DNA from: Candidatus Terrybacteria bacterium
GTDB lineage: Bacteria; Patescibacteriota; Minisyncoccia; UBA9983
Direction: 5' to 3'
Length of the DNA: 42,007 nucleotides
Assembly (NCBI GenBank): GCA_016208535.1
Contig: JACQXW010000010.1
Coordinates: forward strand, 1 to 42,007
In this document: piece after piece, positions 1,965 through 32,690 of the stretch
Layout of the letters: each line of letters opens with the position of its first letter
Position numbering within the stretch: the first letter of the stretch is position 1
Notes under the pieces: model-generated
Database searches by the model: none
What the model was told of the DNA's origin: nothing
The model's input: the letters and a program-made list of their open reading frames with translations, nothing else
Translations under genes and position numbers: made by a program

Positions 1965-3685
1965 TCTTTGGCAAAAATTTTCCATATTTTGTCTGTTTTG
2001 ATATGCCATTTGTAAATCTGGGAAAATCTTTCAGAGGGCGCGGTGATGCTTTCCATCTCCTCTGTGCCCTTGAGATAGTTCGGCAAGAGATAAATGAATT
2101 TTGGCGAGAAGAGAAAGATTGCCGGCGCATCCTTAACCACCTCTCTTTGGAATTCTTCGTATTTTTCTCTCCGCTCATCCTCGTCAGAGATTGTCCGCGC
2201 CTGCTCAAGGAGCTTGTCAACTTTTATATTGGTATAAAGGGCGATATTCAATCCAGGGTCGTTTCTCTGAGAAGAATGCCAGAAGGCAAAGGGGTCCGAG
2301 TCCCTGCCGACTACCTCTCCAAAGAGAAGGGCGTCATATTTTCTCGGCCGGATGATGTTTTGGTTCAGGTCGCCAATCTCAAAGATTTTTATCTTGACCT
2401 TTATCCCCACGGCCTCCCACATTGATTTTAGAAGTTCAGCTGTCTGTTTGAGATCGGGCGTATCCGAGGTGGCCAGAGAAAATTCAAGGCGCAAGATGTC
2501 TCCTTTATTTTTTTTCTCCCAGATTTTTTCTTTTTCATCAAAGGTCCAGCCGTTTTTTAAAAGAAGTGCCCTCGCCTTTTCCGGAGAAAAAATTTCTTCC
2601 TCCGGAGGCAATGCTCCGAATGTCCCAGGCGGGATTGGATAATCAATTTTTGTTCCAAAGCCTTGAAACACCTCGTCTATTATTCTTTTTTTGTCAGTGG
2701 CCAGATTAAGACCGGAACGGATTTCTTTTTTACTGAAGATAGGCGCATTATTTTGGTTAAAAAAAACTCCGAAGACGCGCGGCAAGGAAAGAGTTTTAAG
2801 ATTACTGCTGTTTCTTTTGATTTTTTCCGCTGATTGCGGGGCAATGGCGCTGATGCTGTCAATACTTCCTTTCAAGTAGGCGTTGAGAAGGTCTTTTTCC
2901 GAGGGGTAGAAACGGAGGATGAGATTTTTGATGTGCGGTTTGCCTAAGGCGAAATTTTTATTTGAAACCATCTCATAAGAAGTAATGATTCCCGAAGAAT
3001 TTTTATTGATTTTTTTGATTTTATACGGTCCGGAACCAACAGGCTTGATATTGAATTCACTGAAGCTCATTTGGTCTGACATCGCCTCCTTCCAGATATG
3101 TTTTGGCAAAATGCCGATGGTGGCGTTTTCCAAAAAGGGAACATAAGGTTTTTCCAAAGAGAATCTGACAGAAAGATCACCTAGTTTTTCCACTTCCACG
3201 CCCTCCCAACTTGCCCTTCGCGGACTTTTTATATTCGGGTCTTTTGCCTGCTGGATGGTAAAAATGATGTCGTCGCTGGTAATTGGTTTTCCGTCGTGCC
3301 AGACCAAATTCTGTTTCAGGAAAAATGTGTAAGAGAGGCTGTCTCTAGAAATCTCAAATTTTTCCGCCAGGTCGGGAATGAGATTGCCTTTGTTGTCAGG
3401 CCGCAAAAGGCCGGAGTAGATGAGATTGGTCATGTCCCTGTCCGCGTCTGACATTGCCAGAACGGGATTTATGAATCTGGGGGTGCCGATTGCGCCCTCT
3501 GTCAGTGCGCCGCCGCTGGCAGGTATTTCAATTAAAAAAATATTATTGATTTTCCAGAGCAAGGAAAGGAAACTGGCTGCAAAAATTATCGCCAAACTAA
3601 AAAAAACAATTTTTTCTTTTAAGGAAAAATTTCTTAGAATTAAAACAATTTCGCAGAGAATTTTATTTATCTTTTTCATTATCAT
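1961..3685 (-). CDS. ABC transporter substrate-binding protein, family 5 (peptide/nickel type), membrane-anchored
   Basis: 574-aa ORF with an N-terminal TM/signal anchor. The length and sequence style (e.g. ...LVWHDGKPITSDDIIFT...) are typical of OppA/DppA-like SBPs. No permease genes are adjacent. Confidence 0.75.
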   Translation of the reverse strand: MIMKKINKILCEIVLILRNFSLKEKIVFFSLAIIFAASFLSLLWKINNIFLIEIPASGGALTEGAIGTPRFINPVLAMSDADRDMTNLIYSGLLRPDNKGNLIPDLAEKFEISRDSLSYTFFLKQNLVWHDGKPITSDDIIFTIQQAKDPNIKSPRRASWEGVEVEKLGDLSVRFSLEKPYVPFLENATIGILPKHIWKEAMSDQMSFSEFNIKPVGSGPYKIKKINKNSSGIITSYEMVSNKNFALGKPHIKNLILRFYPSEKDLLNAYLKGSIDSISAIAPQSAEKIKRNSSNLKTLSLPRVFGVFFNQNNAPIFSKKEIRSGLNLATDKKRIIDEVFQGFGTKIDYPIPPGTFGALPPEEEIFSPEKARALLLKNGWTFDEKEKIWEKKNKGDILRLEFSLATSDTPDLKQTAELLKSMWEAVGIKVKIKIFEIGDLNQNIIRPRKYDALLFGEVVGRDSDPFAFWHSSQRNDPGLNIALYTNIKVDKLLEQARTISDEDERREKYEEFQREVVKDAPAIFLFSPKFIYLLPNYLKGTEEMESITAPSERFSQIYKWHIKTDKIWKIFAKD

Positions 3686-4760: not shown

Positions 4761-4768
4761 GGGGGGGG
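4761..4768. repeat. homopolymeric G8 tract
   Basis: gcGGGGGGGGct lies between the TTATCCACA motif and a TATGAA(T) -10-like box. Confidence 0.9.
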
Positions 4769-4860: not shown

Positions 4861-7029
4861 ATGAAAAACATCAAAAAATTATTTATTATCAGTTTATTTT
4901 TAGGTATTTTGGTCGCAGCTGGAGGTTTTGGTTATCAGGCCCAGGCCGCTGGCTTAACTCAAATCCAGATTGACGCCATTCTTGGTCTACTTCGCTCTTT
5001 TGGCGCAGACGCAGCAACAGTTAGCAATGTTCAATCCGCTCTCACAGGCGCGCCAGTTGTTCCTCCAACACCTCCTCCACCTCCTTCAACTACTCCTTCA
5101 ACCGCAGCATGGTGCCATGATTTTTATGTTAATTTAAAGGTTGAAGATTCCGGGAGTGAAGTTGGCGCATTAAAAACTGCTTTAATAAAGGATGGTTTTC
5201 CAATAAATGAAAGTTTAAATTTTAATGAAGAGACTGTCTCAGCAGTCATTGGTTTTCAAGAAAAATACAAAGACGAAATTTTAATTCCCGTAGGCCTTCA
5301 ATATGGAACCGGTTATGTTGGCGCATCAACAAGAGCCAAATTGAATTCGCTTTATGGCTGCCTGATTCCTGTTCCTCCTCCACCGCCGTCAGAAATTACC
5401 ATAATCCCAACTCCAACACCGACACCAATAATAGCAACCACCACTCCCTCCATCACCGTGCTTTCGCCGAACGGAGGGGAGGTGTTTGTACAAGGGCAAA
5501 ATAATACAATTTCGTGGGAATCAAGCAATCTCCCGTCCAATACAACCTATGTTCATCTTGCACTAATATCGGAAACTGCCGGCGAAGTTGGCTTTATTAA
5601 TTATACGAATACAAATGACCCGATCTTAAATTGCGGCTCATACTTATTAAGTGCTAATGGTAATTATAGCTGGGATGGAAAAACCGCATGTAAGAATAGT
5701 CAAAAAGTTAATGTATCAGTTGGAAATTATAAAATCAATGCGAGATTATATTCATGGCCTAATACTAATAATCCAGGAATAGAAATTGCTTTAGATTCCA
5801 GCGACGCGGCGTTCAGTATTGCGGCGGCGACACAATCCTCAATAAAACCCATGATATTTAGAGACATTTTGAAAGTAGAGAGTGTAACTCCGTATGATGT
5901 TGCGAATTTAGGTTTTGGTGTCTATCAAGTGAGCGCTCAATATAACTTGGGATCATATCACCAAGGCAAGTGGTATGAAGGATTGAATCCGGGCATCTCG
6001 GGTCCGGTGTGGGTTGAATTTAGTTGGCCAAACCGGCCTGACACTGATGTTCTGTTGCAAGACGAAAATGGTCTTAGCCGAAAAATTTATCTTCCCTCTG
6101 CCGGAGCAAATACAACAGGTAATCCATGGTATTATTGGATAGCCGAGGACGGATCAAGTTATTATGCCCATACAAGTCATGGCCCTAGTTGGCCTAATCT
6201 TTCTAGTAGTGAAGCATTAAAACTGGAGCATCTTGCTCAAAAAGCAGCAACCACCACCACCCCCTCCATCACCGTGCTTTCGCCGAACGGCGGGGAGAGT
6301 TGGAGTGTCGGTTCAACACAGACGATTCGTTGGACATCTCAAAATTTGCCTTCCGGGTCAAATTATCAGTTTTCAATTGATCTTCGTAAAAACGATGTCA
6401 ACATTAGAACACTTTTTATTTCAACGGAGAATGATGGCACTCAACAATGGATAGTCCCGGATATTGTTTCAAGTGGAATCGAAACTGGTTTAAAAATCCG
6501 ACTTTCTCTTTATGTAGTAGGAACTGCTAAACCTCTTTATTACGACGACAGCGACGCGGCGTTCAGTATTGCGGCGGCAGGGCCAGCAACAGGGACTGTG
6601 ACTATCGCTTCACCAAATGGCGGAGAAACATATGTCCAGGGGTCAACTTACAATATCAACTGGACAAATTTTGGTTTTGGATCTGATGCCTGGGCGCAAA
6701 TCCAGCTCAGGAATTCAACTGATCCCTCTAAGATGGTTAGTCTTATCGTTAATTCAGTGCCAGCAACGGCAAATACTGGAAGTACATACAGCTGGACTGT
6801 GCCTAATACCATTCCGGCTGGCAAATATCTTATTTGGGTGACAATGGGAAGTGGATTAGATTCTACTGGAAATCGCGTTCTCGGCTCTGATTATTCCGAC
6901 GCGGCGTTCAGCATTGTGGCCACAACCACTTCTGGTTTAGGGGCGGTGCCGGCATCAACACAAACAGCAAGCGCCCTCGGGCCTTTATTAGAGGCGATAA
7001 ACAAACTAATTGAACTCTTGAAAAAATAG
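4861..7029 (+). CDS. secreted/cell-surface protein: signal peptide, peptidoglycan-binding-like domain, Pro/Thr linkers, three repeated beta-sandwich-like modules
   Basis: 722 aa. N-terminal signal MKNIKKLFIISLFLGILVAAGGFGYQAQA. A PG_binding_1-like stretch (GSEVGALKTALIKDGF...GFQEKY). Three modules each start ...SPNGGE..V/QGS...W and end SDAAFSI(A/V)A. Identical 29-mers occur at 5446/6262 and at 5800/6550. Confidence 0.8.
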   Translation: MKNIKKLFIISLFLGILVAAGGFGYQAQAAGLTQIQIDAILGLLRSFGADAATVSNVQSALTGAPVVPPTPPPPPSTTPSTAAWCHDFYVNLKVEDSGSEVGALKTALIKDGFPINESLNFNEETVSAVIGFQEKYKDEILIPVGLQYGTGYVGASTRAKLNSLYGCLIPVPPPPPSEITIIPTPTPTPIIATTTPSITVLSPNGGEVFVQGQNNTISWESSNLPSNTTYVHLALISETAGEVGFINYTNTNDPILNCGSYLLSANGNYSWDGKTACKNSQKVNVSVGNYKINARLYSWPNTNNPGIEIALDSSDAAFSIAAATQSSIKPMIFRDILKVESVTPYDVANLGFGVYQVSAQYNLGSYHQGKWYEGLNPGISGPVWVEFSWPNRPDTDVLLQDENGLSRKIYLPSAGANTTGNPWYYWIAEDGSSYYAHTSHGPSWPNLSSSEALKLEHLAQKAATTTTPSITVLSPNGGESWSVGSTQTIRWTSQNLPSGSNYQFSIDLRKNDVNIRTLFISTENDGTQQWIVPDIVSSGIETGLKIRLSLYVVGTAKPLYYDDSDAAFSIAAAGPATGTVTIASPNGGETYVQGSTYNINWTNFGFGSDAWAQIQLRNSTDPSKMVSLIVNSVPATANTGSTYSWTVPNTIPAGKYLIWVTMGSGLDSTGNRVLGSDYSDAAFSIVATTTSGLGAVPASTQTASALGPLLEAINKLIELLKK

Positions 7030-20442: not shown

Positions 20443-20658
20443 GAGTATTCGAAGAGTGGTGGCATAGATGGCGTCTTATACATTACTGACTCCAATGGCA
20501 ACCTCAATGTGTTTGAAGTGGAACGGAATAGCGATGGCTTATGGCTTAACGGCAACAACGGCAATCCTGACAACTTGTGGAACGCTGACAACCAGTGGGT
20601 TTTCTCTCGCGGCAACTCTCTTTATTTTTTCCCCGCTCTTCGCGGGGTTTTTAATTAA
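20443..20658 (+). other. open frame without start codon: C-terminal fragment of the disrupted gene; Asn-codon-rich VR/TR-like segment
   Basis: Same frame as the 19750 ATG. It reads ...GIDGVLYITDSNGNLNVFEVERNSDGLWLNGNNGNPDNLWNADNQWVFSRGNSLYFF..., with 8 AAC and 4 AAT codons in about 47 codons. Confidence 0.5.
20631..20652 (+). terminator. GC hairpin plus T-run at the end of the VR/TR-like segment
   Basis: CCCCGC-tcttc-GCGGGG followed by TTTTT. The palindrome TTAATTAA that follows supplies the stop codons of both convergent reading frames. Confidence 0.6.
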
Positions 20659-21023
20659 GCAGTTGTTTTTGCCATCCACCCAGTATCCTGCCAATTTCAT
20701 CCAAATATTCAGAAAAGACAATATATTTTTTATTATCCAAAGATTTTATTTCCCAGGAAATTTGCAGAAAAAACTTCAAAAGGTCCAGTTTTGAAATGGC
20801 TTTTTGTATGTACGGAGTTTTTAAGTTTTTATTCAATCGGCTTGCTATAAAAATCAACTCAGCGATTTCTATTATTAAACTATCAATCTTAATTCCCAGC
20901 GTGTAGCGCGAATCTTTCGGAAAGTGCGGAATAAATTCATGCCACAGCTTATATAACGCAATAATACAAATAATTATTGTTAAATTTTGTCGGGGGGGGG
21001 GGCGTACTGGTGAAATTTTTCAT
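20651..21023 (-). pseudogene. avd: Avd-like four-helix-bundle protein (DGR accessory), apparent frameshift in a C11/G11 tract
   Basis: The open frame reads ...LYKLWHEFIPHFPKDSRYTLGIKIDSLIIEIAELIFIASRLNK...KLDLLKFFLQISWEIKSLDNKKYIVFSEYLDEIGRILGGWQKQLLN. The only in-frame start is the TTG at 20857 (68 aa), which would remove the first helices. The ATG at 21023 comes into frame, giving 123 aa, if the homopolymer were 10 nt rather than 11. Confidence 0.55.
20992..21002. repeat. homopolymeric G11 tract
   Basis: gtcGGGGGGGGGGGcgtactgg, 39 nt upstream of the RT ATG and inside the avd 5' region. Confidence 0.9.
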
Positions 21024-21040
21024 ATACTAATAATACGCCC

Positions 21041-22027
21041 ATGATAAACAAATTCCAAACTAAATACGAAGAAATTATCTCTATCGAAAACCTCCTTTCG
21101 GCTTGGGAAGAATTTTTGAAAGGCAAAAGAAACAGAAAAGATGTTCAAGAATTTCAGTTTAATCTGATGGACAACATCCTTGCTCTCCATGGCAATCTCG
21201 CCAGCCGAACTTACAGCCACGGCGGATATAAAGCATTCAAAATCAACGACCCAAAGCCGAGAGATATCCACAAAGCAAGCGTGCGGGACAGATTGTTGCA
21301 TCACGCCATTTACAGGATTTTGTATCCGTATTTTGACAAAACATTCATAGCCGATTCTTTTTCCTGCAGATTAAAAAAGGGCACGCACAAAGCGATAAAC
21401 AGATTCAGAAAATTTGCCTACAAAACCGGCAAAAATGACACCAAAACCTGCTGGATTTTAAAATGCGATATCAAGAAGTTTTTTGCCAACATAGACCACA
21501 AAATTTTAATCAATGTCCTGCGTGAACATATTGTGGACGAAAACTTGATAAAACTTCTCAAAAACATCGTTGAAAGTTTTTCGTCAGCAAGAGATGGCAT
21601 CGGTTTACCATTAGGCAATCTCACTTCGCAACTTTTCGTAAATATTTACATGAACAAATTTGACCAATTTGTAAAACACAAATTGAAAGCGAAATATTAC
21701 ATCAGATATTGCGACGATTTTGTTGTTTTCTTGGAAAGTAAAAATTATGCGCAAAAATTGATTCCGCCCGTCAGGGAATTCCTAAACAAAGAGCTTAAAC
21801 TGGAACTGCATCCCGACAAAATTTCCGTCAAAACTCTGGCTTCCGGCGCCGACTTTCTCGGCTGGATTAATTTTACCGACCATAGAATTTTGAGAACCGC
21901 CACAAAAAGAAAAATATTCAGGAATATCAAGGAAAGGGGAGGTAAGGCGGAAACCGTCCAGTCGTATTTGGGGCTGATTAGGTGGGGGAATACAAGGAAA
22001 TTGCGTAATTTAATTGTAAAGTGTTGA
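21041..22027 (+). CDS. DGR-type reverse transcriptase
   Basis: 328 aa. ...NDPKPRDIHKASVRDRLLHHAIY...KCDIKKFFANIDH...GLPLGNLTSQLFVNIYMNKFDQFVKH...YIRYCDDFVVF...LELHPDKISV...ADFLGW. It carries the LGxxxSQ motif-4 signature and YxDD. Confidence 0.9.
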   Translation: MINKFQTKYEEIISIENLLSAWEEFLKGKRNRKDVQEFQFNLMDNILALHGNLASRTYSHGGYKAFKINDPKPRDIHKASVRDRLLHHAIYRILYPYFDKTFIADSFSCRLKKGTHKAINRFRKFAYKTGKNDTKTCWILKCDIKKFFANIDHKILINVLREHIVDENLIKLLKNIVESFSSARDGIGLPLGNLTSQLFVNIYMNKFDQFVKHKLKAKYYIRYCDDFVVFLESKNYAQKLIPPVREFLNKELKLELHPDKISVKTLASGADFLGWINFTDHRILRTATKRKIFRNIKERGGKAETVQSYLGLIRWGNTRKLRNLIVKC

Positions 22028-31523: not shown

Positions 31524-32690
31524 ATGAGAGATTTTGAAATAGAAAATTTTATTAAACAAGAAGAAAAGAGGCAAAAAAAGGCGATAAATCTTATTGCCTC
31601 TGAGAATTTTGCTTCCAAAGATGTTTTAAAGGCGCTCGGGTCTGTTTTTATGAATAAATACGCCGAGGGCTACGCGGGAAAAAGATATTACGGCGGAAAT
31701 GAAATTGTGGATAAACTGGAAAAATTATGCCAAGAGCGCGCGCTGAAATTATTTATCCGCCAGCCGGCGGATCGCCATAAATGGAGTGTAAATGTCCAGC
31801 CTTACTCCGGCTCGCCGGCAAATCTGGCGGTTTTTTTGGCGCTTGTGCCGAAAGGTGGAAAAATTATGGGAATGTCTTTGGAAATGGGCGGGCATTTGAC
31901 CCATGGACAAAGAGTTTCTATAACCGGAAAACTTTGGAAGCAAGTGCCGTATGGCGTGGATAAAAAAACGGAGCAGTTGGATTATGGCGAGATTTTAAAA
32001 ATAGCCAAAAAAGAAAAGCCGGTGCTGATTATCGCGGGAGCCACGGCTTATTCGCGAAAAATTGATTTTAAAAAATTCAGAGAAATTGCAGACACAGTTG
32101 GCGCGTATTTAATGGTGGATATGTCGCACATCGCGGGGCTGGTGGCGGGTGGAGTTCATTCGAGTCCATTCCCATATGCAGATGTGGTAATGACAACAAC
32201 TCATAAAACCTTGCGCGGCCCGAGAGCAGCTCTAATTTTTTGCAAACTGGAATTAGCTTCAAAAATTGATAAAGCTGTTTTTCCCGGTTTGCAGGGCGGG
32301 CCGCATATGAATCAGGTGGTGGCAATGGCAGTGGCTTTGAGAGAGGCTATGCAACCGAGTTTTAAAAAATACGCGCGACAAGTTGTGAAAAACGCCAAGG
32401 TCTTGGCGAATGAATTAAAAAAGCGCAGCTGGAGAATAATTTCCAACGGAACTGATACACACTTGTTTTTAGTTGATGTCTGGCAGAGGGGGATTGGCGG
32501 AAAGGAGGTAAGCGAAAGATTAGAGAAAGCCGGAATTATCGTTAATAAAAATACCATTCCGTTTGACACTCGCAAACCAGCTGATCCGTCCGGTATCCGT
32601 ATCGGCACGCCGGCGGTAACAACGCGAGGAATGAAAGAAAAAGATATGGTAAAAATCGCGGAAAAAATAGATAAAATATTAAAATTATGA
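31524..32690 (+). CDS. glyA: serine hydroxymethyltransferase
   Basis: 388 aa. ...LIASENF...YAEGYAGKRYYGG...TTTHKTLRGPR (PLP lysine). Confidence 0.9.
   Translation: MRDFEIENFIKQEEKRQKKAINLIASENFASKDVLKALGSVFMNKYAEGYAGKRYYGGNEIVDKLEKLCQERALKLFIRQPADRHKWSVNVQPYSGSPANLAVFLALVPKGGKIMGMSLEMGGHLTHGQRVSITGKLWKQVPYGVDKKTEQLDYGEILKIAKKEKPVLIIAGATAYSRKIDFKKFREIADTVGAYLMVDMSHIAGLVAGGVHSSPFPYADVVMTTTHKTLRGPRAALIFCKLELASKIDKAVFPGLQGGPHMNQVVAMAVALREAMQPSFKKYARQVVKNAKVLANELKKRSWRIISNGTDTHLFLVDVWQRGIGGKEVSERLEKAGIIVNKNTIPFDTRKPADPSGIRIGTPAVTTRGMKEKDMVKIAEKIDKILKL

Follow-up and report, generated by a model that had tools for sequence, protein, structure and literature searches.

What is a run of 11 G/C pairs doing at the head of a gene that it puts out of frame? 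The window analysed here, a 42,007-nt stretch of a Candidatus Terrybacteria genome (contig JACQXW010000010.1, assembly GCA_016208535.1), carries a diversity-generating retroelement (DGR) whose reverse transcriptase (RT) gene and avd diverge from each other, and at 20992–21002, exactly where the original prediction had placed the tract, the sequence reads G11 on the plus strand and C11 on the minus strand. An assembly error, a pseudogenised avd and an ON/OFF switch of the DGR had been put forward as its possible meanings, with related genomes as the means of comparison. Long G/C tracts are subject to slipped-strand mispairing and drive phase variation in several bacteria.

The DGR cassette of the window

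The cassette comprises the following features.
20654–21019, minus strand: Avd body, 122 codons, with its stop at 20651–20653 and no in-frame canonical start ahead of the TTG at 20857
20992–21002, both strands: G11/C11 homopolymer, a putatively hypermutable repeat, read as prolines directly ahead of helix 1 on the avd strand
21041–22027, plus strand: DGR-type reverse transcriptase, 328 aa, intact, divergent from avd (PF00078, E = 1.8e-25)
~20494–20620, plus strand: Asn-codon-rich template repeat, adjoining the 3′ end of avd
20631–20647, plus strand: terminator-like element (G+C-rich hairpin, then a T-run) separating the template repeat from the avd stop

The minus-strand frame matches the Pfam family bAvd (PF22296, E = 5.4e-13, 49.8 bits with a cut-off of 40), protein residues 25–119 aligning to profile positions 13–106 of 107. 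An AlphaFold model built from 54 homologues (pLDDT 92.6) has four helices (residues 10–32, 35–60, 64–90 and 96–121), and Foldseek superposed it on Avd chains of 8ub7 and 4dwl with TM-scores of 0.72–0.87, including 0.82 for chain B of 8ub7, a DGR ribonucleoprotein, and 0.72–0.86 (rmsd 1.7–2.2) for the Bordetella phage Avd chains of 4dwl. Unlike the fold search, a sequence search of the PDB returned no Avd match. Profile and model together identify the frame as Avd, with the predicted structure of a bAvd-like four-helix bundle.

The RT shows the LGNLTSQ and YCDD motifs and hence the DGR-type pattern, RVT_1 with [ILV]GxxxSQ and YxDD. Its ATG at 21041 lies 39 nt past the tract, as predicted, and a TGA in the RT frame at 21011–21013 places the tract outside the RT ORF in the window. 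Neither the Avd body nor the RT carries a further lesion. An adenine-masked search of the window and of the 518-kb assembly found no variable-repeat partner for the template repeat at 20494–20620, leaving this cassette without a template/variable repeat pair that differs at template adenines. One weak match on contig C8 was considered as a variable repeat and rejected as spurious.

G11 is the only G/C run of at least 9 in the 518,588-base genome, where ~0.02 runs of 11 or more would be expected by chance. Together with a (CT)11 in a second DGR cassette (described below) it makes up the two longest non-triplet repeats of the genome, one per DGR and each at the start of avd. The sole other G/C run of at least 8 is a G8 at 4761–4768 of the window, which is intergenic and ~93 nt upstream of a 722-aa ORF (4861–7029).

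Reading frames at the tract

Three possible starts bear on the avd frame.
21021–21023, minus strand: ATG of a short leader (MKNFTST-Pro-n), sharing the Avd frame when the tract has 10 or 13 C, with a 123-aa product at 10
21040–21042, minus strand: second ATG (MGVLLVYEKFHQYA-Pro-n), with a 2-nt overlap with the RT start codon
20855–20857, minus strand: TTG, the sole canonical in-frame start at 11 C, which would give 68 aa

Translation from the ATG at 21023 runs through MKNFTSTPPPPTKFNNNYLYYCVI to a stop, and from the ATG at 21042 through MGVLLVYEKFHQYAPPPDKI, likewise to a stop. The Avd-like frame, which contains PVRPPPRQNLTIIICIIALYKLWHEF and ends in GGWQKQLLN, is open from 21019 to 20654, and its register is off by one base from the ATG at 21023, in agreement with the original prediction. 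One G/C fewer joins the two frames ((21023 − 20654 + 1 − 1)/3 = 123 aa), hence the 123-aa protein predicted for a tract of 10 stands. It is not, however, the only repair, since the ATG at 21042 enters the Avd frame when the tract has 9 or 12 C and then gives 129 or 130 aa. At 11 C both ATGs are out of frame and a complete translatable avd ORF is absent. With either ATG able to serve, just one of the three length classes, that of 11, is OFF and the other two are ON, and a single slip in either direction would bring Avd back into frame. The TTG at 20857 had been named as the only fallback start, at the price of the first helices, and in the AlphaFold model the 68-aa product is indeed without helix 1 and most of helix 2. 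In the same model the prolines encoded by the tract are residues 7–9 of the read-through frame, immediately before helix 1.

A simple repeat at the start of avd in related loci

Related loci were collected by RT searches of relatives' genomes, metagenome contigs and species-representative genomes (~180 loci, 60–80% RT identity), and avd was located in them with an Avd profile built from eight loci. Where a lineage was named, it was mostly Patescibacteria (Azam-, Jorgensen-, Yanofsky-, Staskawicz-, Morani-, Nomura-, Kaiser- and Buchananbacteria, among others), with a few loci under other or generic lineage labels; within the order no relative was closer than 80% RT identity. According to the profile, avd lies on the strand opposite the RT in every related locus. 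The layout is very uniform. In nearly all listed loci no more than ~90 nt separate the end of the template repeat from the avd stop, and 92 of 103 relatives have a variable repeat that precedes the template repeat by 370–550 nt.

A simple repeat homologous to the tract occurs within ~25 nt upstream of Avd domain position 1 in 140 of the 154 non-redundant loci covering the start region of avd (~90%), and 139 of these 140 could be scored. Most scored repeats (127/139) are poly-C on the avd strand, ranging from C6 to C14 with a mode of 10 (C10, n = 42; C9, n = 34; C8, n = 17; C11, n = 16). The remainder are (CA)n, (CT/TC)n, (GA)n, (GCCA)9 and (AACC)10. Away from the avd spot, G/C runs of at least 8 were found only twice in 351,618 nt (first set, 89 loci). 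Unrelated motifs at one fixed position suggest that the repetitiveness itself is kept, as opposed to a peptide or a binding site.

One subclass differs in its geometry (the second cassette of the same genome, on contig C3, together with L063, L080, L087, L093, L096 and others). In these loci no ATG for the RT follows the repeat, and the RT ORF extends back across it to an upstream start, hence one repeat would set the frame of both RT and avd.

Where avd translation starts

Whether the repeat can act on the Avd frame depends on where translation begins. All 143 scored loci have, no more than 100 nt upstream, an ATG whose frame stays open into the repeat; shuffled sequences would give 59. Opposite this ATG, on the RT strand, most loci have a conserved His codon close to the N-terminus of the RT, and this codon is CAT in 108 of 108 loci and never CAC; for comparison, CAT accounts for 56.6% in RT bodies and 76.6% of the neighbouring NNY codons end in T (P ~3e-13). 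A His codon that is only ever CAT is best explained by the need to keep the avd start codon, and a start codon kept upstream puts the repeat inside the avd reading frame. This synonymous constraint supports a start of avd upstream of the repeat, which the original prediction had assumed. Stop depletion in the 36 nt ahead of the repeat is weak (no open frame in 9% of loci compared to 19% of shuffles).

The sub-lineage of the window (the window, L002 and L003) does not have the RT His; the avd ATGs that it uses correspond in position to 21042 and 21023. Its closest relative, L002 (RT 80% identical, C6), is in frame from the ATG homologous to 21042, and L003 (also C6) from the ATG homologous to 21023.

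Just past the repeat, at Avd profile position 4, TTG makes up 27 of 53 Leu codons compared with a background of 17.7% in avd bodies, and six further loci have ATG or GTG there. This hints at a repeat-independent internal start in ~40% of loci; alternatively, the TTG could be a DNA-level motif (TTGCC). The codon of the window at this position (20978–20980) is TTA.

The enrichment of TTG, ATG or GTG at position 4 would also be expected if the repeat acted on transcription or on an untranslated leader, through promoter spacing or the RT 5′ leader, with Avd starting just past it. The near-random frame states reported below are compatible with such a role, as is an RT start just 13–39 nt away in most loci; moreover, TTGTCG (20987–20992) and TGAAAT (21011–21016) flank the tract of the window on the plus strand with an 18-nt spacer. 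These hexamers, which the original prediction had also placed around the tract, had been read as an RT promoter, but the pair failed a consensus promoter scan and the equivalent spacer in the closest relative is 13 nt, which counts against that reading. Further against a transcriptional role, 44 of the 139 loci, including the window, have no canonical start after the repeat that would give a full Avd, the CAT/ATG constraint and the universally open leader indicate an upstream start, and repeats of 24–42 nt such as (TG)12, (GCCA)9 and (AACC)10 exceed a 17-nt promoter spacer. We regard this explanation as improbable.

The scan gave two sites in total, a number not significant alone (1.9 expected in shuffles), one of which points at avd.
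21030–21058, minus strand: sigma-70-like match TTGGAA-17-TATTAT, inside the RT 5′ end

This site is unchanged in L002. Its predicted transcript start is near the ATG at 21023 (7 nt past the −10 box), and the avd mRNA may be leaderless.

Frame states and repeat-length differences

All frame states occur among the relatives. Taking the upstream ATG as the start, the 139 scored loci divide into 36 ON, 60 shifted by +1, 39 shifted by −1 and four with two ATGs that are both out of frame, hence avd is out of frame in 103 loci (74%). The ON share (26%, compared to a random expectation of 33%) is compatible, too, with the frame of the repeat being of no consequence, and the +1 class is in modest excess (P = 0.02). 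This excess over −1 (60 vs 39, among loci L024–L204) could stem from mutational bias, selection for OFF or slippage at the level of decoding. An apparent rule that dinucleotide loci are always +1, true of all seven in the first set, was discarded when the second set did not repeat it.

Loci that are OFF do not look like decaying ones. Nearly every locus has a full-length Avd body whatever its frame state, and where enough flanking sequence was available the template/variable repeat pair is kept in 67 of 73 OFF loci and 19 of 21 ON loci. In those pairs at least 93% (mostly 100%) of the non-adenine template positions match, with 6–16 of 60 positions differing overall. Intact bodies combined with pairs that look recently active argue that OFF is not decay, and the suggestion of a pseudogenised avd consequently fails as a general reading. 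Either switching outpaces the accumulation of point mutations, or some Avd is made from out-of-frame alleles.

For the window itself, decay is a separate possibility. Under relaxed selection the tract may have drifted to 11, making avd an early pseudogene and G11 a frozen lesion in a decaying cassette. A variable repeat, present in 92 of 103 relatives, is absent from the window and its assembly, for which reason a switch in this cassette may be idle or decaying. Furthermore, the TTA of the window stands where a TTG at position 4 was lost, and internal deletions affect several genes of the genome, including efp and the avd on C3. Set against this, the Avd body and the RT are otherwise undamaged, one slip brings the frame back, and the second cassette has a live repeat pair but a truncated avd, hence the avd of the window may still be needed in trans. 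On this evidence a frozen lesion seems to us unlikely.

Repeat length differs between near-identical genomes in four groups of relatives. Two metagenome assemblies (L035 and L036) align over 5,957 nt with no mismatch and a single indel, G10 versus G9 in the tract, which takes avd from OFF to ON. Among 11 contigs with an identical RT, nine have G9 and two G8, and a 134-aa Avd is called in one of the G8 contigs (GCA_001774195.1). Assemblies with identical RTs also differ by (TG)12 versus (TG)9 and by (TG)10 versus (TG)12. Homopolymer differences between assemblies can be sequencing errors, a concern to which the dinucleotide cases are less open. With a repeat of varying motif in 140 of 154 loci, lengths that vary among otherwise identical assemblies and every frame state represented, the comparisons strongly favour the ON/OFF option of the original prediction.

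The same comparisons bear on the simplest explanation, that the consensus of the window is wrong, the true tract being 10 or 12, with avd intact and no switch needed for this genome. Long G/C homopolymers are classic error sites and 11 is one step from both ON lengths. Yet an out-of-frame share of 74% across 139 independent assemblies is beyond a plausible error rate, the same OFF length recurs in nine of 11 independent assemblies of one strain, and length variation extends to the dinucleotide repeats found at this position. A miscounted 11 would, moreover, leave the tract an instance of the conserved repeat. We consider a plain consensus error at this tract unlikely.

Look-ups of exact products (window RT, 68-aa Avd fragment, target ORF, RNR activase and the 108-aa antisense ORF) found no second assembly of the same species, and a further look-up found none for the (GCCA)9 locus. 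Four Logan contigs (L116–L119, from SRR12113398, SRR12113404, SRR12113405 and SRR12113406) encode exactly the ribosomal protein L10 of the window, and these four runs probably hold the same species; each contig starts within the RT gene, and none reaches the tract.

Length differences in DNA also bear on whether the frame is instead corrected during decoding, by RNA polymerase stutter or a ribosomal +1 shift on CCC-C, with a fairly stable DNA length serving as a low-level throttle on Avd. tRNA-Pro is known to shift +1 on CCC-C. The commonest class is +1 (60 loci, compared to 39 for −1); loss of one mRNA base or a ribosomal shift of +1 would mend it, and the window is itself +1 relative to the ATG at 21023. 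Recently active-looking repeat pairs in OFF loci would be accounted for, and the apparent internal deletion in efp of this genome would favour stalling on Pro runs. However, the shift required is not uniform, with 39 loci needing the opposite correction and 36 none, hence there is a bias and no rule. DNA lengths themselves differ among near-identical strains, and repeats of di- or tetranucleotides are not among the known sites of ribosomal shifting. We see only a slender chance that decoding is the level at which the repeat acts.

A proposed phase switch on a DGR accessory protein

The explanation that we favour, with moderate confidence, is a slipped-strand phase switch on Avd, of which G11 would be the local copy. 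Across a large clade of Patescibacteria in which avd diverges from the RT, a simple repeat would sit in the first codons of avd, translation beginning at an ATG upstream of it. Each frame of the repeat would encode the same harmless linker (poly-Pro in the window), and slipped-strand mispairing during replication would add or drop units, such gains and losses only moving an intact four-helix Avd body in or out of frame. The window at 11 would thus be OFF, with 10 giving the shorter Avd from the ATG at 21023 and 12 or 9 the longer forms from 21042. As Avd is needed for DGR cDNA synthesis in Bordetella phage BPP-1, the repeat would switch hypermutation, toggling it in a heritable, random and reversible manner. 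The comparisons themselves show a conserved repeat of polymorphic length, all frame states, a constrained start codon and an intact Avd fold; from these we infer that the repeat slips inside populations, that expression tracks the frame and that homing is thereby controlled.

A bolder version would make DGR hypermutation phase variable throughout the clade by way of an ancestral avd-leader repeat (a mutator of a mutator), with G11 possibly acting across cassettes, such that one slip would start the diversification of a target elsewhere in the genome. We consider this rather unlikely as a whole. A full-text literature search found no published description of a repeat in avd.

The arrangement resembles the contingency loci of Campylobacter jejuni, Neisseria and Haemophilus influenzae, which likewise have a non-triplet repeat in the first codons of an otherwise intact gene, a modal poly-G/C length of 9–10, varied motifs at the same site, and lengths that differ among near-identical strains and toggle the frame; G11 is similarly a non-triplet repeat in the 5′ coding region or promoter of a gene that is otherwise intact. 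It differs in that the gated gene encodes a DGR accessory protein and not a surface or restriction-modification function, that the hosts are Patescibacteria, that the repeat mostly lies in a head-to-head overlap with the RT, and that switching is here read from sequences alone. A closer parallel in layout is the (TA)n between hifA and hifB of H. influenzae, also a simple repeat between divergent genes with cooperating products. There, however, the repeat sets the −35/−10 spacing, whereas the repeats described here reach 42 nt, the upstream ATG is synonymously constrained and the logic of the frames is in keeping with translation.

Compared to the BPP-1 DGR (mtd-VR/avd/TR/brt), the cassette of the window shares an RT with [ILV]GxxxSQ and YxDD, an Avd four-helix bundle and an adenine-rich template repeat, and its relatives share the adenine-specific template/variable repeat mismatches. 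Unlike in BPP-1, avd is inverted and transcribed away from the RT gene, the template repeat is found past the 3′ end of avd, a simple repeat occupies the avd leader, and the copy in the window is without a variable repeat.

DGRs are, to our knowledge, the only natural system of targeted protein hypermutation in prokaryotes. A very large share of DGRs is found in Patescibacteria. If the proposed switch is real, diversification would run only in a changing subpopulation, which would limit its cost, and it would account for avd often being missed or annotated as broken in these genomes. Repeat length would then be a simple handle on DGR regulation in metagenomic time series and reconstituted systems. 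What the window contributes is the two-ATG geometry, the test of the start by synonymous codons and two complementary half-cassettes.

A second cassette in the same genome

The other half-cassette is located on contig C3.
C3:31208–33051: second DGR cassette (locus L122), with an RT 79% identical to that of the window

At 32170–32191, at the start of its avd, this cassette carries a (CT)11. The gene matches only profile positions 2–66, its 3′ half being deleted such that it ends after helix 2. A template repeat (~32465–32390, minus strand) and a variable repeat (~32916–32840) are both present, and their core mismatches all fall at template adenines. The two cassettes are complementary, that of the window having an intact avd body, the only complete one in the genome, and no variable repeat, that on C3 a repeat pair and half an avd, and it is possible that the C3 cassette uses the Avd of the window in trans.

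Both cassette types are also present in G006, the closest relative genome. Its second-type cassette (L123, contig C2) has an avd with a one-base frameshift in an A-run (GAAAAAGAAAGAAAATGG), and a template/variable repeat pair free of mismatches at non-adenine positions; a comparison of ~430 nt showed the locus to be identical to the metagenome locus L024. L123 thus joins the C3 cassette as a DGR that looks live yet has no functional avd of its own.

A further observation on this genome concerns efp, the gene for elongation factor P, which appears internally deleted on contig C6 (~2765–3130). Some 28 N-terminal residues are followed by the C-terminal domain in another frame, and a match to the middle domain (PF01132) is missing. 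If the loss is real, translation of Pro runs such as the avd leader would be impaired. The EFP_N domain was matched in 19 of 21 genomes searched, 18 of them above the curated cut-off, hence absence of elongation factor P is not lineage-wide; the match in the genome of the window is a sub-cut-off fragment.
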